A stretch of 50,130 nt of DNA from assembly GCA_009695005.1 (NCBI GenBank), contig SIBU01000004.1:1-50130 (forward strand). Reading direction: 5' to 3'. How positions within the stretch are numbered: position 1 is the stretch's first letter; every line of letters starts with the position of its first letter. The position numbers and the translations under genes were made by a program. The notes beneath the pieces were generated by a model. It saw only the letters and a list, made by a program, of their open reading frames with translations. It did no database searches and was not told the DNA's origin. Below are positions 4,973 to 50,130 of this stretch, piece after piece. Source of the DNA: Candidatus Tayloriibacteriota bacterium. Lineage in GTDB: Bacteria > Patescibacteriota > Minisyncoccia > Phycocordibacterales > SIBU01.

Positions 4973-5689
4973 TTATTTCACAAATTTTTCAAATGCGTTG
5001 CGTCGATTAGAAACTTTTTCATCAGATTCAATCATACCGTCTCGTAGGTGAATGATTCTTTTGGCGCTTTCGGCTGTATAGGTTTCGTGTGTGATGAGAA
5101 TAACCGTATGCCCCGAATCATTTAATTTTTGAATGATCTCCATCACCGTCTGTCCCGATTTTGAATCAAGATTTCCAGTTGGCTCGTCAGCAAAAATAAT
5201 TGATGGTTTTTGAATTAGAGCTCGGGCGATAGCAACGCGTTGACGTTCACCACCTGAAAGTTCAGATGGCCCGTGCTCTAAACGGTGAGAAAGACCAACT
5301 GATTTGAGTGCTTCTTTGGCCAGTCCGTCCCATTCTCGCTCCGGAACCTTTGAGTAGAGAAGTGGAAGCTTTACGTTTTCCAGCACTGTTGTTCTGGCTA
5401 AAAGATTAAAGGTTTGAAAAATAAATCCAACTTTTTCATTTCGGATTTTTGCCAGTTCTTCGTCGCTGTAAAGTGATACATTTTTACTTTCAAAAAAATA
5501 ATCACCGGAGGTGTGCTTATCGAGAAGCCCGAGAATATGAAGTAAAGTAGATTTTCCAGAGCCTGATGGACCCATGATGGCAACAAAATCACCAGGTTCG
5601 ATTGCAAAGGAGACATCTTTTAGTGCTGTAGTAGCCAAACCATCATCTTCGTAGGTTTTGTTGATATTTTTTATCTCAATGAGAGCCAT
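4973..5689 (-). CDS. ABC transporter ATP-binding protein (MacB/LolD-like)
   Basis: GPSGSGKST, LSGGERQRVAIARAL, ADEPTGNLD and ITH. Confidence 0.95.
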   Translation of the reverse strand: MALIEIKNINKTYEDDGLATTALKDVSFAIEPGDFVAIMGPSGSGKSTLLHILGLLDKHTSGDYFFESKNVSLYSDEELAKIRNEKVGFIFQTFNLLARTTVLENVKLPLLYSKVPEREWDGLAKEALKSVGLSHRLEHGPSELSGGERQRVAIARALIQKPSIIFADEPTGNLDSKSGQTVMEIIQKLNDSGHTVILITHETYTAESAKRIIHLRDGMIESDEKVSNRRNAFEKFVK

Positions 5690-44311: not shown

Positions 44312-46597
44312 TTACAGAATTTGCTCTTCCTTTGGAGGGGTTTCAGATATGGTTTTTTGTGTGGCCTCTCCAGAGTTGATTACTTCGCGTGGTTTTGCTC
44401 CATCTGCTGCGCCAATTACCCCTCTTTCTTGTAAAAGGTCTACCAATCTTGCGGCTCTAGCGTAACCAACTCGGAGTTTCCTCTGAAGATAGGAGGTAGA
44501 AGCCTTTCCGGCTCTCACCACTTCTTCCTTTGCTTGCTCATAGAGGTCATCGTCAACGTCTTCGTCTCCACTGTTAAAGCTTGATTCAAAAATTGAATTC
44601 TTATCTGCAACTGCTTCGGGGGTAAGGTTAAGTTCTGTTGGTATGCCGCTGTCGTAATTTTCTTTAAGATAATTAACAACTCCTTTTAACTCGGCTTCGG
44701 TGATGTATGCGGATTGAATACGTTGTGGTTTAGACATTTCACTACCCAAGAAGAGCATGTCCCCAGCGCCTAGAAGTTTCTCTGCACCTCCTGTGTCTAG
44801 AATAGTTCGTGAATCGATTTGCGATGATACTTGAAGAGCGATACGGCCAGGAATGTTTGCCTTAATAAGACCTGTGATGACATTGACTGAAGGTCTTTGT
44901 GTGGAGAGGATGAGGTGGATACCGATGGCACGACTCATTTGAGCCAATCTTACAATGGCAGACTCCAGTTCTCTTGGGTAGGTAGACATTATATCCGCCA
45001 ATTCATCGATTACGATGACAATGTACGGCATCAATTCCGGCATTTTACCTTCCAAAGCTTGTTCTTCCGGAGATTTTTTTTCAAACTTTTTGAGTTCTGG
45101 TTCAAGGATGTTTTTGTGGTAGGACTCAATGTCTCGCACCGATTCTGATTCTAAAATGTCGTAACGCCGATCCATTTCTTTGGCAGCCCACTTAAGTGCA
45201 AGGATGGCTTTTTTTGCTTCAGTAATGACTGGGGTTAAGAGGTGGGGGATCTTGTTGTAAAGGGTCAATTCAACACGTTTTGGGTCGATCATGATGAATT
45301 TTAAATTTTCTACAGGATTTCTGAAGAGAAGCGAGGTAATGATTGTGTGAATTGTTACTGACTTTCCCGATCCTGTTGTTCCAGCGATAAGGAGATGTGG
45401 CATTTTCGCAAGATTAGCGAAATGAGATTTTCCAGATATGCCTTTGCCTAAAGATACTAAAAGAGGCTTTTCAGATTTTTGATACTCTTCTTGCGCAAGA
45501 AGGGTTGCAAGACCGACCGTAGATTTTGTGGAATTGGGAATTTCGATACCGACAAGTGATTTGCCAGGAATAGGGGCCTCGATTCTTAATGGGTGAGCCG
45601 CAAGTGCTAATGATAAATCGTTTTGAAGCGCTACGATCTTAGATAGTTTGACTCCTTCAGCAGGCTTAAGAGCGTATCGAGTAACCGACGGTCCGATTGA
45701 AATTTCATCCATTTCGACATTGATGCCGAAGTTTTGAAGTGTTCTCTTGATTATATTTTTGTTTGCATTTATATCGCCGACAATCGCCTTGCCTTTGTCT
45801 TTTTCTAATAGGGATAGCGGGGGAGGGGTAAACACTTTGCCAAGATTTCTAAAAAGTGATGAGGAGTTCTTTTTGTCTAAAGAGAAAGATTCTTCGGACC
45901 CGGTATTCGGTGTCTCGACAGTCTTTTGTTTTTCAGTCTTTTTTGCCTCAATTTTTTCCTTAAAATTTTTTGAGTCATTTTCCGATTCCTTCTCCTCCTC
46001 GTTTTCTGGTATCACTGCGACCGAAGGAGTGTCGTCATCTTGTTTGGAATCGTTATTTGTTTTTTTGAGGGCATTTCTTTTTCTCAGCCATTTCCAAAAA
46101 GTGATCAGGGGTTCGGTTGTGATTTCTGTTTCGAAGATTATAAGTGTCGAAACAATAAAGAGTGCACCTAAAAGAATGGCGCTTGCGTAGACGTCAAAAA
46201 GTTTAATTAAAGGGGTAGAAACAAAATGTCCTAGAATTCCACCTTGGTTTACGGCAACAATATCTATCATTCCAAGACCTGCCAGCACAAACAGGAAAGA
46301 TCCGCCAATTTTTATTAAAGGAAAACTTTGCTTGATAGATTTTAAGAAGGCGAACCCCAGCAAGATAAGCAGTGTCGGTATAAGAAAATAACCAAGAAAA
46401 CCTAGTAAATATTTAAACCACTCATACATAAAAACACCAACAGGACCAGCTTTGCCAAAAGAAGCAAGAACGAAAAGAATGGCTAAGACGAAAAAAACAA
46501 TACCAAGTATTCCTTGCAAGGTCTCTCTCTTCATTTCACCCAAGATTGCACCCCCCTTTTTGTCAGAATTCTTTGTGGTTACCTGTTGTTTTGCCAT
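44312..46597 (-). CDS. ftsK: DNA translocase FtsK/SpoIIIE
   Basis: N-terminal TMs, RIEAPIPGK, AGTTGSGKS, IDELAD, STQRPS and gamma domain LQRKLRVGYARAARL. Confidence 0.96.
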   Translation of the reverse strand: MAKQQVTTKNSDKKGGAILGEMKRETLQGILGIVFFVLAILFVLASFGKAGPVGVFMYEWFKYLLGFLGYFLIPTLLILLGFAFLKSIKQSFPLIKIGGSFLFVLAGLGMIDIVAVNQGGILGHFVSTPLIKLFDVYASAILLGALFIVSTLIIFETEITTEPLITFWKWLRKRNALKKTNNDSKQDDDTPSVAVIPENEEEKESENDSKNFKEKIEAKKTEKQKTVETPNTGSEESFSLDKKNSSSLFRNLGKVFTPPPLSLLEKDKGKAIVGDINANKNIIKRTLQNFGINVEMDEISIGPSVTRYALKPAEGVKLSKIVALQNDLSLALAAHPLRIEAPIPGKSLVGIEIPNSTKSTVGLATLLAQEEYQKSEKPLLVSLGKGISGKSHFANLAKMPHLLIAGTTGSGKSVTIHTIITSLLFRNPVENLKFIMIDPKRVELTLYNKIPHLLTPVITEAKKAILALKWAAKEMDRRYDILESESVRDIESYHKNILEPELKKFEKKSPEEQALEGKMPELMPYIVIVIDELADIMSTYPRELESAIVRLAQMSRAIGIHLILSTQRPSVNVITGLIKANIPGRIALQVSSQIDSRTILDTGGAEKLLGAGDMLFLGSEMSKPQRIQSAYITEAELKGVVNYLKENYDSGIPTELNLTPEAVADKNSIFESSFNSGDEDVDDDLYEQAKEEVVRAGKASTSYLQRKLRVGYARAARLVDLLQERGVIGAADGAKPREVINSGEATQKTISETPPKEEQIL

Positions 46598-46740
46598 ATT
46601 TGAAGCATCATCGGAGACATAAATATCATATCATAATTTGACGACCCGGCACGTCAGAGGAGAGAAAAATCTTGGTGGGGATCTTCAAAACTTTACAATT
46701 TATAGGACTACCGCTATAGTTGAGTGTAACAGACATTTAA

Positions 46741-47503
46741 GTCCTTAAAGATGGCTAGGATGCCCACAACTGGCCATAAAGGACAACAATAAGACAATGG
46801 ATGACAAAAAGGACAAAGATGTGCTTCCGACAGAAACGAGAGATCCTAAAAACCTCTTTATTTTCGAGCTATTTGAAAAGGACAACTACTTTTTGTTCAT
46901 ATACAAAAAGACAGAGAAGATTGTCTCCGCTCTATATTTGGTAAGTAATTTGTTTCCTGATGAGGAGCCAATTCGTTGGCAACTTCGTAAGTGTGGCGTT
47001 TCGATTATTTCTGAAATATTGTCGGTCATTTCAGGGCCGAGTCCTTTATCTAGGATGGAAATTGTTTCAAAAGTTGCACCTCAATTGTTGCGAATTATTT
47101 CACTGATCGACATCTCCTCAACGGCCGGACTTATTTCCGAAATGAATTACCTGATTTTAAAAAGAGAGCTTGAAGATTTGCTCTCTACTTTGAATTATAA
47201 AGAAAAAGGGGGAGGAGATTTTGTAAATAAATTAGTCACTTTAGACAAGGATTTTTTTGCCGTACCTCGTACAAATTTAGGCCCGAGTTCATCCGAGTCT
47301 GTTGATAAAAATTCATCAGTTAAAATCGACGGACACGCAAGAGAAAATGTCACAGACAACGGAGTGCATTCCTGGTCTGATATAAGACAAGGCATGAGTA
47401 ATTTTAAAGGACAGTCAGTTGGTGGCGAGACAGGTTTACTTAAAAATTCGACCTATCACGGTTCCCAGATCGGTGCTTCTAGGACACCTCAATTTAAAGG
47501 CCA
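46741..47503. repeat. Dispersed (T/A)AAGGACA / AAGACA direct repeats around and within the 46797 gene
   Basis: GGACA at 46781, 46811, 46880, 47331, 47409 and 47482; AAGACA at 46791, 46908 and 47384; TAAAGGCCA at 47495; inverted GTCCTTA at 46741. Confidence 0.55.
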
Positions 47504-47732
47504 GGGTACCTCTACTCACGTCTCGGGGGGAGCTCGAGAGTTTGAAATACTTAGGTTGGTTGGGTTGAAAAATAACCTTACAATTAGGGATTTTTCTCTA
47601 GTTATTAAGGGTTGTAGTGAGAAGACTATTCAGCGTGAATTGTCGCGACTGGTTAAGGTTGGTGTCCTTAATAAGATCGGGGAGAGAAGGTGGAGCAGGT
47701 ACTCACTGGCTTCAGAGCAACTAGCAAGTTAA
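46797..47732 (+). CDS. Protein with N-terminal four-helix-bundle-like domain, disordered linker and C-terminal winged HTH (DeoR-like)
   Basis: YKKTEKIVSALYLVSNLFPDEEPIRWQLRK N-terminus; LTIRDFSLVIKGCSEKTIQRELSRLVKVGVLNKIGERRWSRYSL wHTH. Confidence 0.75.
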   Translation: MDDKKDKDVLPTETRDPKNLFIFELFEKDNYFLFIYKKTEKIVSALYLVSNLFPDEEPIRWQLRKCGVSIISEILSVISGPSPLSRMEIVSKVAPQLLRIISLIDISSTAGLISEMNYLILKRELEDLLSTLNYKEKGGGDFVNKLVTLDKDFFAVPRTNLGPSSSESVDKNSSVKIDGHARENVTDNGVHSWSDIRQGMSNFKGQSVGGETGLLKNSTYHGSQIGASRTPQFKGQGTSTHVSGGAREFEILRLVGLKNNLTIRDFSLVIKGCSEKTIQRELSRLVKVGVLNKIGERRWSRYSLASEQLAS

Positions 47733-48006: not shown

Positions 48007-48015
48007 TTATCCACA
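48007..48015 (+). promoter_or_regulatory. Single perfect DnaA box
   Basis: TTATCCACA inside a 713-bp non-coding AT-rich interval. Confidence 0.45.
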
Positions 48016-48445
48016 TTTACTTTTTGCAGGCTGTTTCCATCAGAGATATAATTGCTCTAGGTACAGAAATGTTACCAAGTTGTGGTTTTTCACAGCTTGG
48101 AATAATTCGTTTACTCGAGCTACCCTATTATTGATTCTGCTTGGAGATTTCTGAAAGAATACGTTTTTTGAAAACAAAATAGAGACAATAGTTTCCGAAT
48201 TTCCTTATTCTGTAATTTGTCTGTAGTGCCGAAATTTCAGTCCAAACTCATCTACTAACCCACGAGCTTTGTGTCGATGTATAAAGTTTGTGGGGTAGTG
48301 AAATGCAGTAATTAAGGTAGAGAAATATTTTGGTTTTACGTCGAAACCAAATTTTAATCTACGTCCGTAATTTCTCTGTAATCGAAATTATTAGCTTTAT
48401 TCGTTATAAATCGAGTAGAGAAATTTAATTATTAAGTACAATATT

Positions 48446-50130
48446 ATGTATCAATCGAAAAAATCTAAAACAAAGCAATTTGTGACAGGTTTGATCGGTG
48501 CCTCATTGGCATTAAGTCTCGCTTTTGCGGTAACCGTAAAAGCAGACACCGTTTCTGACCTTACAGCACAAATCAATAGTTTACTCGCAACTGTTAGTGG
48601 ACTTCAATCAAAACTCTCTACTGTACAAGGTGGAGCGCCAGCTTCAAGTTCAAGTACCGGATACTCCTTTTCAAAGGACTTATCTATGGGCAGTTCAGGT
48701 GCTGATGTTATGAATCTTCAAAAGGTTCTAAACATGAGTGCTGATACTCAAGTATCAAGCACAGGAGCAGGTTCAAAAGGAAACGAAACTTCAAAGTTTG
48801 GTCCAGCCACGAAAGCGGCTGTAATCAAATGGCAGAAGAAAGCAGGTCTTCCTTCTACTGGCTACGTAGGCTCACTCTCACGAGGAAAGCTTAATGCCAT
48901 GTCAGCTCCAGTTGTTGTCGTCCCTTCTCTTCCGGGCGTAATAACTACAGCTCCAGTCGTTCAGTCTGGCACAGGTTTGACAGTTTCAAGTCCTGTTCAA
49001 CCAGCAGCTACGATTGCTCCAAAGGCCACCTCACGAGTACCTTTCACAAAAGTTACTTTGACAGCTGGTTCTGACGGAGATGTAACAGTCAACTCGCTAA
49101 CTGTTCAGCGAACAGGTCTAGCGAATGACTCTGCCTTCGGAAGTATTGTTCTCTTGGATGAGAATGGTCTTCAGATCGGCACGTCAAAGACTTTCAATTC
49201 AAATCACCAGACAACTGTTGGCGACCCATTTGTAATTTCACGAGGAACTTCAAAGACGTTGACAATTGCTGGAAACATGGCTGCTGACCAGACTGAATAC
49301 TCTGGACAGGTTGCAAGCTTGACTGTTGTCGGAGTTAACACTTCAGCAACTGTTACAGGCTCGCTTCCAATCGTTGGTGCTGGTCAAACTGTAAACAACA
49401 GCTTGACTATCGGTACCGCGGTTCTCTATGTGTCTCAGTATGACCCAGCTTCAGCCTTGTCAAAAAATATCGGAGACACTGCTACAAAGTTCTCAGGTAT
49501 CAAGGTTTCAGCCGGTTCAAGTGAGGATGTCACTCTTTGGTCAGTTCGTTGGAATCAAACCGGTTCAGCTGGTACCACCGATCTCGCCAATGTTGTAACA
49601 GTTCTTGACGGTACTTCTTATCCTACAACTGTGTCTACAGATGGTAAGTACTACACGACACTCTTCCCAAATGGCATTGTCATTCAGAAGGGTTTCTCAA
49701 AGGAATTCTTTATCCAGGGAGATATTGTAGGTTCAGGTGCGGCTAGCCGTACTGTAGAGTTCGATCTCTACAATGCCTCAGACCTTTATGTCTCAGGTAA
49801 TACCTACAACTTCGGAATCTTGTCTACAGCAAACAGTAGTGTCGCCCCATCTTCTCTTTCCGCCACTTCTCGCTCAAGATTTACCACTGGAAGTCCTTTC
49901 TACGCAGGTTCAATTGTGACTATTTCTGCAGGTACAGCAACAACAATCGGTAAGGCACCGACAGCTGCACCAGCTACAAATATCGCAGTTAATGTTCCAA
50001 ACCAAATTCTTGGTGCATACGAAACTAACATTAAGGGTGAGCCGATTTCGGTTCAGTCAACTGTATTCCATCTAAACAGTAGTGCTGCTTACGCATCTAA
50101 CCTTATCCCAACAAGCATTTCGCTTATCGA
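48446..50130 (+). CDS. Large secreted surface (S-layer-like) protein with peptidoglycan-binding domain; truncated by the window end, not in the ORF track
   Basis: Hand translation from ATG 48446: signal peptide (...LALSLAFAVTVKA), QINSLLATVSGLQ coil, PG-binding DLSMGSSGADVMNLQKVLN...FGPATKAAVIKWQ, then Ser/Thr/Val-rich beta domains. Confidence 0.85.
   Translation, partial: MYQSKKSKTKQFVTGLIGASLALSLAFAVTVKADTVSDLTAQINSLLATVSGLQSKLSTVQGGAPASSSSTGYSFSKDLSMGSSGADVMNLQKVLNMSADTQVSSTGAGSKGNETSKFGPATKAAVIKWQKKAGLPSTGYVGSLSRGKLNAMSAPVVVVPSLPGVITTAPVVQSGTGLTVSSPVQPAATIAPKATSRVPFTKVTLTAGSDGDVTVNSLTVQRTGLANDSAFGSIVLLDENGLQIGTSKTFNSNHQTTVGDPFVISRGTSKTLTIAGNMAADQTEYSGQVASLTVVGVNTSATVTGSLPIVGAGQTVNNSLTIGTAVLYVSQYDPASALSKNIGDTATKFSGIKVSAGSSEDVTLWSVRWNQTGSAGTTDLANVVTVLDGTSYPTTVSTDGKYYTTLFPNGIVIQKGFSKEFFIQGDIVGSGAASRTVEFDLYNASDLYVSGNTYNFGILSTANSSVAPSSLSATSRSRFTTGSPFYAGSIVTISAGTATTIGKAPTAAPATNIAVNVPNQILGAYETNIKGEPISVQSTVFHLNSSAAYASNLIPTSISLI

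Follow-up and report, generated by a model that had tools for sequence, protein, structure and literature searches.

Does a DNA-binding protein of Candidatus Tayloriibacteriota read a repeated word that is written into its own gene? The question is raised by a locus near the right-hand end of contig SIBU01000004.1, analysed here from position 1 to 50,130 (50,130 nucleotides (nt), hereafter the window). A first-pass annotation, made from the sequence alone, had seen iteron-like repeats in and around a gene next to ftsK and had proposed that the gene product is a DNA-binding protein that recognizes repeats in its own locus. The comparative evidence supports this proposal well: conservation of the repeats, selection at synonymous positions, co-occurrence of word and protein, and co-variation of the word with the wing of the protein all suggest that the protein reads them. 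On balance we consider it probable that the protein is an oligomeric winged helix-turn-helix (wHTH) regulator that represses itself through a phased array, with a co-operating array in the DNA of its linker, a regulon of surface-protein genes and no role in replication.

The gene (46797-47732, + strand) is the sole long open reading frame (ORF) within 46741-47732 and encodes a product of 311 amino acids (aa). All of the repeats counted in the first-pass annotation were recovered from the sequence, namely GGACA at 46781, 46811, 46880, 47331, 47409 and 47482, AAGACA at 46791, 46908 and 47384, a single TAAAGGCCA, and GTCCTTA at 46741, to which a second copy of GTCCTTA at 47664 can be added. The background estimated there, less than one GGACA per kb per strand, was also about right, with 0.82 per kb measured on the + strand of the window. 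It is the longer word, not GGACA, that carries the signal. AAGGACA is found at the locus at 46779, 46809, 46878 and 47407 on the + strand and at 47663 on the − strand, and the genome to which the window belongs (794 kb in 24 contigs, of which the window is contig C11; 89% complete) contains 104 copies on both strands (0.13 per kb). Five copies in 992 bp have a Poisson probability of 2.8e-7, or about 2e-4 when corrected for 794 1-kb windows. At 4 per kb, AAAGGACA has the highest count of any 8-mer among all 1-kb stretches of the window, and only three places in the genome, the window locus and two on contig C13, have at least three AAGGACA per kb. The 9-bp word TAAAGGACA has 10 exact copies in the genome, 8 of them in three clusters. 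Of the six GGACA copies, those at 47331 and 47482 fall outside the extended motif and probably arose by chance.

The word was examined in a close set of 80 loci from different species with 31-39% protein identity, 78 of which were used for motif counts. Between −300 and +100 around the gene, AAGGACA has a density of 2.84 per kb (both strands) compared with 0.11 per kb in 530 kb of flanking DNA. In an unbiased k-mer comparison of gene and flanks, TAAAGGAC ranked first (192 observed, 0.9 expected), and exact TAAAGGACA was found 112 times in the gene region and once in the flanks. Single-base variants define the tolerated word as T-A-A-[A/T]-[G/A]-G-A-C-[A/G/T]. Since variants are tolerated at position 5, the AAGACA copies belong to the same word. 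The T-A in front of the heptamer is present only at gene-associated copies and is missing from background AAGGACA. The degenerate word occurs at 5.2 sites per locus, with at least three sites in 73 of the 78 loci, and reaches 4.27 per kb around the gene compared with 0.049 per kb in the flanks; the enrichment over flanks ranges from 88- to 600-fold. True orthologues from distant families (genomes G085 and G156) carry these arrays at equivalent positions.

Copies in the gene region are mostly on the sense strand (205 versus 63) and form two clusters with centres ∼600 bp apart, one extending from ∼140 nt upstream of the start codon through the first codons and the other lying in linker-coding DNA. 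In the linker the heptamer is used in three frames, as K-D-x (32 times), K-G-Q/H (63) and x-R-T (12). When synonymous codons were shuffled within each gene, with protein and codon usage held constant, the 78 genes yielded 50.4 ± 6.1 copies of AAGGACA compared with 194 observed (z above 20), and 50.5 ± 6.3 copies of the degenerate word compared with 225 observed. From this excess and the use of three frames, the peptides MDxKKD-[K/N/T/I] and YKGQ/FKGQ are best interpreted as traces that the DNA word has left in the protein. Codon usage alone and a lack of repeats in homologous loci were among the contrary outcomes set beforehand; codon usage is insufficient and the repeats are present in homologous loci. 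Motif enrichment with attention to synonymous positions, proposed earlier as a check, likewise revealed enrichment and selection at the DNA level across the 78 loci.

The spacing of the sites is also regular. Distances between sites on the same strand peak at 21 bp, and among all pairs no more than 130 bp apart a period of 10.25-10.5 bp dominates (amplitude 0.22-0.32, 376-642 pairs), the helical repeat of B-DNA being ∼10.5 bp. The iteron-like layout suggested for the window is therefore borne out in the form of phased direct repeats. Upstream of the start codon, at a distance of 75-140 nt, 52 of the 78 loci carry the sequence T[AT]TAAT[AG]GAC; in 42 of the 78 a complete TTGNNN-N16-18-TANAAT promoter is followed without a gap by [AG]GAC, which places the first site across the start point and the second half of the −10 box. 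Judged by these predicted promoters, the sites are laid out as for an autorepressor. The corresponding elements in the window are as follows, with scores in bits from a position weight matrix (PWM) scan.

46692-46720, + strand: putative sigma-70-like promoter of the wHTH gene, TTTACA-17 nt-TATAGT (10/12 match)
46701-46709, + strand: weak site TATAGGACT in the promoter spacer (PWM scan)
46727-46735, + strand: site TAACAGACA at the expected transcription start (10.7 bits, medium)
46740-46748, − strand: inverted site TTAAGGACT, the GTCCTTA noted earlier (7.9 bits, weak)
46777-46785, + strand: consensus site TAAAGGACA in the 5′ leader, within an upstream ORF (uORF) (16.5 bits)
46788-46796, + strand: weak site AATAAGACA, abutting the start codon (9.8 bits)
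46807-46815, + strand: site AAAAGGACA, coding for K-K-D of the conserved N-terminus MDxKKD (16.9 bits)
46876-46884, + strand: site AAAAGGACA, coding for E-K-D-N (FEKDN) (13.5 bits)
46905-46913, + strand: site AAAAAGACA, the A variant at position 5, 29 bp past the preceding site (14.7 bits)
47040-47048, − strand: inverted site TAAAGGACT, where a loop of the bundle is encoded (10.1 bits)
47381-47413, + strand: linker-coding array, two sites 24 bp apart
47381-47389, + strand: linker site TATAAGACA (10.2 bits)
47405-47413, + strand: linker consensus site TAAAGGACA, coding for F-K-G-Q (15.1 bits)
47495-47503, + strand: degenerate copy TAAAGGCCA, coding for the second F-K-G-Q (one mismatch, at a near-invariant position)
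47663-47671, − strand: inverted site TTAAGGACA, coding for G-V-L-N of the wing region (11.8 bits)

In homologues the codon after K-D begins with A, the G/A variant at position 5 is tolerated family-wide, and the codon choice T GTC CTT at GVLK recurs in 24 homologues. The copy TAAAGGCCA at 47495 is probably a decayed site. The 5′ leader also contains a 13-codon uORF, MARMPTTGHKGQQ* (46753-46794), which ends 3 nt before the main start codon and encloses the strongest site of the leader.

The AlphaFold2 model of the protein, built with 27 homologues, has a predicted local distance difference test score (pLDDT) >90 in two domains and <50 in the linker between them.

46884-47195, + strand: four-helix bundle, aa 30-133 (helices at aa 30-50, 58-79, 86-109 and 115-133)
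47205-47522, + strand: disordered linker, aa 137-242
47526-47708, + strand: winged helix, aa 244-304 (three helices and a beta hairpin)

The combination of an IVP-like four-helix bundle and a C-terminal wHTH, proposed in the first-pass annotation, is borne out by the model, by structural matches and by profile matches. Foldseek places aa ∼30-133 in the four-helix-bundle fold of the 23S_rRNA_IVP/Avd family, with template modelling (TM) scores of 0.74-0.79: Xcc0516 (2gsc; TM 0.79, E 2.9e-4), Avd (4dwl; TM 0.77) and BT_0352 (2rld; TM 0.75), with 2gsc and 2rld listed with chains A-E. The C-terminal domain is matched by ArsR/SmtB, BlaI/MecI, DsrD and AspA structures, the match to the centromere binder AspA being weak, and a sequence search of the PDB returned only a marginal BlaI match. 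Matches to Pfam and NCBIfam are all sub-threshold: 23S_rRNA_IVP with E 0.005 (aa 34-133), where PF05635 scores 17.4 bits against a curated cut-off of 33.8 and TIGR02436 scores 13.4 against 24, and a PaaX-like HTH with E 0.07. HTH_DeoR (PF08220) weakly matches 15 of 27 family members, with E values down to 2.8e-5, and does not match the window protein itself, for which PaaX is best. A profile search of the protein found neither a DeoRC match nor the ParB N-terminal (CTPase) domain PF02195; the HTH is C-terminal (aa 244-304 of 311) and the N-terminus is the four-helix bundle. Avd forms a pentameric barrel (PMC6182149), and by analogy the bundle would make the protein an oligomer.

More than 1,900 homologues were found, all in Parcubacteria/Paceibacteria-type members of the candidate phyla radiation (CPR); most are unnamed and a few are labelled 'DeoR family'. 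The segment CSEKTIQREL..LV..GVLKK.GERRWSRYSL is near-invariant, and the recognition helix CSEKTIQREL is invariant. We found no description in the searchable literature of an Avd/IVP-like bundle fused to a wHTH as a transcription-factor architecture, and a literature search returned no paper describing the protein family or the 9-bp word. A more distant paralogue with bundle and wHTH (L103; genome G039, contig C2, 3634-4293, − strand) has the recognition helix SPRTLRRDM, adjoins a gene for an extracytoplasmic function (ECF)-type sigma factor and is without a TAAAGGACA array. The pairing of bundle and wHTH may be a wider regulator architecture of the CPR.

Besides the arrays shared by orthologues in distant families, two kinds of comparison bear on whether this protein is the reader of the word. 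The first is co-occurrence, for which we used 121 genomes spread evenly over the class, 26 of them with the protein. A looser pair (AAGGACA-N-AARGACA) occurred at about control level in 150 genomes of the phylum outside this class; the pattern was noisy and a stricter one was adopted, in which TAAAGGAC is followed after 2-32 nt by TAAWRGAC. Such strict phased pairs are present in 11 of the 121 genomes, 9 of the 26 with the protein versus 2 of the 95 without it (Fisher p = 1.1e-5, or 2e-8 when restricted to strong homologues, neither corrected for phylogeny), and they are located inside the homologue's own gene.

The second comparison concerns the wing. A second set of 79 loci (from Niyogi-, Giovannoni-, Sung- and Nomurabacteria) was split by the residue that follows the wing tryptophan. 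The 35 loci with wing RWS have 106 copies of TAAAGGAC against 0.7 expected, whereas the 26 loci with wing RWR have nearly none and instead have TATCGGAC (33 against 1.3 expected), along with TATTGGAC, TAATGGAC and TAACGGAC. The word becomes TATCGGACA in relatives whose wing is KRWR rather than RRWS, and the linkers of R-wing proteins code for [N/I]-G-[H/Q] in place of K-G-[Q/H]. TAAARGAC outnumbers TA[AT][CT]GGAC in 91 of 103 S-wing loci compared with 2 of 25 R-wing loci, and TA[AT][CT]GGAC is preferred in 23 of the 25 R-wing loci. The association of wing and word has a Fisher p of 1.4e-14 (9e-7 in the second set alone), uncorrected for shared ancestry, and it points to the protein as reader, short of proof. 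No co-variation with protein residues was seen for the G/A position in the first 78 loci, because the recognition helix there is invariant.

The word also marks other genes. The three clusters of TAAAGGACA in the window's genome are at the wHTH gene, in a spacer on contig C13 and in the stop-codon region of a C13 gene. The spacer separates two divergent surface-protein genes by 340 bp and contains six copies of ATGTCCTT[G/T]A; one of the two products has PKD domains, the other He_PIG, PKD and PG_binding_1 domains. Around the stop codon of the second gene the sequence reads TAAAGGACA, 6 nt, TAAAGGACA, 7 nt, TGTCCTTTA. A ninth exact TAAAGGACA belongs to a small group of sites before the gene of an 838-aa protein on contig C21. 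A complete relative (G001) and 12 more relatives again have clusters in three settings: at both ends, 5′ and 3′, of genes for very large PKD, Bact_surface_Ig-like and PG_binding_1 proteins; within cca, where they encode a duplicated Y-K-G-Q..Y-K-G-Q with an offset of 24 bp; and in the spacer between cca, yraN and xth. Clusters away from the wHTH gene mix both orientations within 100 bp, which together with the 10.5-bp phasing favours duplex DNA over RNA as the form in which the word acts. Across the whole genome of the complete relative there are fewer copies of the degenerate word than of a reversed control (129 versus 224), a deficit that would fit avoidance of stray sites; a strand switch of the word near dnaA is among the matches listed for that genome. 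The products of this predicted regulon are probably envelope or attachment proteins of episymbionts.

Relatives with the word written into cca, each with two sense-strand TATAAAGGACA 24 bp apart, are:

L092:3911-5521, − strand: cca
L094:3967-5499, − strand: cca
L095:7692-9203, + strand: cca
L097:2395-3909, − strand: cca

These copies encode YKGQ..YKGQ at the conserved D-x-x-G-x-x-D-L motif, so that the word stands in a housekeeping enzyme; cca was not found in the 89%-complete assembly of the window's genome. Between convergent cca and xth there is a ∼700-bp non-coding stretch (L084:3458-4172; G001, ∼177.5-178.2 kb; equivalents in L086, L094, L095 and L097) that consists of a terminator, ∼500 bp of GC-richer, structured-looking DNA and five sites of mixed orientation at the xth end. 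Rfam gave nothing credible for this spacer or for 46.4-48.6 kb of the window. At giant surface-protein genes a +,+,− trio or quartet of sites straddles the stop codon:

L001 (contig C13 of the window's genome), 5165-5204: stop-codon trio or quartet
L093, 5816-5856: stop-codon trio or quartet
L090, 8770-8801: stop-codon trio or quartet
L087, 1205-1242: stop-codon trio or quartet

The last two copies form an 11-bp inverted repeat, with a predicted RNA fold of −21.7 kcal/mol (z = −4.1) and no U-tract after it.

The neighbours of the wHTH gene in the window are:

44312-46597, − strand: divergent ftsK, followed by a gene for a small secreted protein and recA (ORF and synteny; a neighbour and at most a possible target)
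48007-48015, + strand: conserved TTATCCACA, a DnaA-box sequence, 7 nt upstream of a promoter
48023-48052, + strand: predicted promoter TTTGCA-18-TATAAT, downstream of the wHTH gene
48446-50128, + strand: start of a large secreted PG_binding_1 surface-protein gene, cut by the contig end (family-wide syntenic partner)

The divergent arrangement with ftsK, pointed out in the first-pass annotation, holds in 80 of 80 loci of the close set, with the small secreted-protein gene next in 73 and recA in 65, and the predicted ftsK promoter (46657-46630) lies to the left of the array and outside it. As a conserved partner ftsK does not stand, since the linkage is lost in the wider family (3 of 26 R-wing and 1 of 13 T-wing loci). 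The downstream surface-protein gene is kept where ftsK is lost (68 of 80 loci in the close set, 28 of 35 S-wing, 26 of 26 R-wing and 13 of 13 T-wing), so that the constant partner is this gene and not ftsK. Its product is secreted, exceeds 1,100 aa (the orthologue in the complete genome exceeds 1,114 aa) and has an N-terminal PG_binding_1 domain.

The DnaA box reported earlier in this spacer is real and conserved; it is a single box tied to a promoter. Of 64 downstream spacers, 58 contain TTATCCACA in + orientation, as do all 26 of 26 R-wing loci, compared with 1 match in 266 kb of flanks. There is one box per locus, always 5-9 nt before a TTTGCA/TTGCA-N17-TATAAT promoter, and box and promoter lie at a median of 92-161 bp past the stop codon. 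The box-linked promoter has no TAAAGGACA sites. In one sub-group (alignment A3, for example L046:5026-5105) the transcript would start with a 20-pair hairpin, 11 pairs of which show compensatory changes, followed by conserved CCCAGAGC and GAACTTTGACAA; this could be a structured 5′ leader or a small RNA, and has no Rfam match. The window's own leader (48053-48445, ∼390 nt) has a different hairpin at ∼48072-48100. The box element marks a conserved promoter of the surface-protein gene, probably a strong one and possibly under DnaA control, with a structured leader.

A role in replication control or chromosome organization, which the first-pass annotation had put forward as a candidate, is not supported by the observations. 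The GC skew is positive over all 50 kb of the window, so that the position check proposed there finds the locus at no skew switch. The densest cluster of DnaA boxes is directly after dnaA on contig C1, not at the locus, and the complete relative (743 kb) has dnaA at 206 kb, 92 kb away from the locus at 298 kb. A substitute for ParB was also rejected, a canonical ParB being encoded elsewhere (contig C22 of the window's genome; 483 kb in the complete relative). Nor is the protein the reader of the heptamer arrays, a possibility raised earlier: these consist of AAGATTx/TAAATCT units unlike TAAAGGACA. Among other candidates, a LexA-like role in the SOS response, considered for its recA neighbour, was dismissed: LexA is absent in the window's genome and present in the complete relative, without a consistent pattern, and the recA linkage is lineage-specific. 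An accessory role in a diversity-generating retroelement, suggested by the Avd-like fold, does not fit reverse transcriptase (RT) genes in 5 of 11 relatives carrying the system and no RVT_1 in the window's genome; where present, the RT lies elsewhere in the genome than the wHTH locus. The word is rare and clustered, neither dispersed nor skewed, and does not resemble an FtsK-orienting polar sequence (KOPS) or an uptake sequence.

These results still have to be weighed against other explanations of the arrays. The word could be the operator of a different CPR factor, with the wHTH gene merely its most conserved target and the protein binding something else. This would suit sequence evidence that contains no physical tie of protein to word, clusters that lie far from the gene, and tests of co-occurrence and co-variation that are uncorrected for phylogeny; it is nevertheless improbable given arrays inside the gene in distant families, a word that shifts with a residue of the protein's own wing, a recognition helix that is invariant wherever the GGAC core is, the rarity of phased pairs in genomes without the gene (2 of 95), and the general experience that a dense array of sites in a regulator gene usually means autoregulation. 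A quite unlikely alternative is an architectural or segregation factor that acts in the manner of parS/ParB, iteron handcuffing or nucleoid bridging, with the arrays as loading or pairing sites. Few clustered sites per genome that include its own gene, as for parS in parB/spo0J, direct repeats ∼21 bp apart as in iterons, arrays at both ends of long genes, the weak structural match to AspA and the ftsK and recA neighbours all agree with such a factor, and are set against the presence of canonical ParB, a locus at neither ori nor ter with a single DnaA box, a first site that overlaps the −10 box in most loci, other clusters at promoters of surface-protein genes, and loss of ftsK synteny in the wider family.

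The remaining explanations place the word in RNA or in the peptide. Action of the repeats in mRNA as UAAAGGACA elements, through translational autoregulation or as Shine-Dalgarno (SD)-like decoys, is very unlikely: the sense-strand bias, the many copies in the transcribed leader and the resemblance of AAGGA to the SD core agree with it, whereas 10.5-bp phasing is a property of duplex DNA, one copy overlaps the −10 box upstream of the start point, other clusters mix orientations within 100 bp, the variant AAAAGACA has no SD likeness, and the domain is a DNA-type, DeoR-like wHTH. That the repeats arose by chance, or simply reflect Lys/Asp/Gly codon usage together with a conserved KGQ peptide, has a negligible probability. 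An A-rich genome, a linker rich in K, D, G and Q, and the modest significance of the window gene alone could suggest it, but it is already refuted by use of the word in three frames, the enrichment over flanks and the family-wide shuffles, and it does not accommodate non-coding copies or intergenic clusters elsewhere.

Several points weigh against a self-repressing regulator that reads this word. Taken by itself the window gene is significant only at about p = 0.02 in the synonymous shuffle (mean 0.9 AAGGACA versus 4 observed, with 4 of 200 shuffles reaching 4), and its array is modest, with five strong sites at spacings of 30, 69, 29 and 24 bp and no clean 21. Spacings in the linker are multiples of three (15, 18, 21 and 24 bp), so that phasing there is confounded with coding. 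The wing-T group (GEKRWT[IV]Y, 13 loci) has no site array: it keeps the downstream surface-protein gene, has the TTATCCACA box in 5 of 13 loci, and is enriched for an 8-mer, GCAAGCCG, that occurs about once per locus upstream. Another lineage-specific factor could have drifted in parallel with the wing residue. The oligomeric state is taken only from structural relatives, and the downstream surface-protein gene, the most conserved neighbour, lacks sites at its own promoter, which leaves the link between regulator and neighbour unexplained.

With these points in mind, we propose for the self-repressing regulator that a DeoR-like winged helix reads the asymmetric 9-bp TAAAGGACA and its tolerated variants, and that an oligomer formed by the bundle would allow several winged helices on flexible linkers of ∼100 aa to occupy several sites together, the sites being direct repeats spaced by whole helical turns. 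The promoter array covers the −10 box, start point, 5′ leader and first codons, and its occupancy would shut off transcription of the gene (negative autoregulation). The second array, ∼600 bp downstream in the gene's own linker DNA, would most likely co-operate with the first by looping or as a roadblock. The predicted regulon is small, with the word at the 5′ and 3′ ends of a few large PKD/Ig/PG-binding genes and around cca-xth.

A bolder version, which we put forward only tentatively and consider doubtful, is that the protein forms a ring-shaped, possibly pentameric hub in which about five tethered winged helices clamp about five phased TAAAGGACA sites and bridge distant arrays, acting as a master switch of surface proteins that can be reprogrammed by one residue. 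Such a hub would join the promoter of its own gene to the linker-coding DNA of that gene, and would likewise connect the 5′ with the 3′ ends of giant surface-protein genes. The stretch that codes for the tether would double as operator, and the YKGQ and KD repeats, even those in cca, would be by-products of the binding word. If so, the hub would be the master switch of S-layer-like and adhesin surface proteins in episymbiotic Paceibacteria.

To our knowledge, almost nothing is known of gene regulation in CPR bacteria (Patescibacteria), which are uncultured. The analysis provides a candidate CPR regulator together with a predicted word, a putative specificity residue and a small, conserved candidate regulon of surface-protein genes, and recombinant protein with synthetic DNA would allow a test of the prediction without cultivation. 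It also suggests a case of overlapping codes, in which an array kept in all three frames within the linker of its own binder imposes peptide repeats on that protein and on others.

Among known systems, MraZ is an oligomer that binds short direct repeats about one helical turn apart at its own promoter and represses itself within a cluster of division and cell-wall genes. The putative regulator described here would share an oligomeric state, direct repeats at its own promoter, autorepression and a context of division and envelope genes. It differs in having a bundle and a wHTH in place of SpoVT/AbrB-like domains, in its word (TAAAGGACA rather than TGGGN), and in a second array in its own coding sequence, which MraZ is not known to have. 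Plasmid Rep proteins with their iterons (RepA, RepE and π) provide another analogy, with a winged helix on an asymmetric site, autoregulation at their own promoter, possible pairing of arrays and direct repeats about two helical turns apart, comparable to the 21-bp peak and 10.25-10.5-bp period found here. However, Rep proteins combine two winged-helix domains and are not known to contain an Avd-like bundle, compared with a bundle and a single wHTH in our model, and iterons are 17-22 bp long and lie in an origin with several DnaA boxes, whereas the sites here are of 9 bp and the locus is chromosomal, syntenic in hundreds of species and off any skew switch.

DeoR acts through several distant operators with looping. 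The present family resembles it in the weak HTH_DeoR match of 15 of 27 members, the window protein not among them, and in the database name of some homologues; in DeoR, however, the HTH is N-terminal and is joined to a DeoRC sugar-phosphate domain, whereas here it is C-terminal and joined to a four-helix bundle. The N-terminal domain has the same fold as Avd and the proteins of 23S rRNA intervening sequences (IVS; PF05635, TIGR02436), which unlike the present protein are stand-alone and of ∼110 aa; Avd partners a reverse transcriptase, and the system described here is present in genomes without any RT (6 of 11). The 16-bp palindrome of ParB/parS lies near the origin, in contrast to asymmetric 9-mers that are mostly direct repeats and lie 92 kb from dnaA, although parS inside parB/spo0J is similarly a site within the gene of its own binder. 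Parallels to the linker array are lacO2 in lacZ and galOI in galE, operators within genes that act as a second site several hundred bp away from the one at the promoter. What sets the present locus apart from these operators in coding DNA is a multi-copy array within the linker DNA of its putative binder, conserved at the level of the class and written in all three frames.

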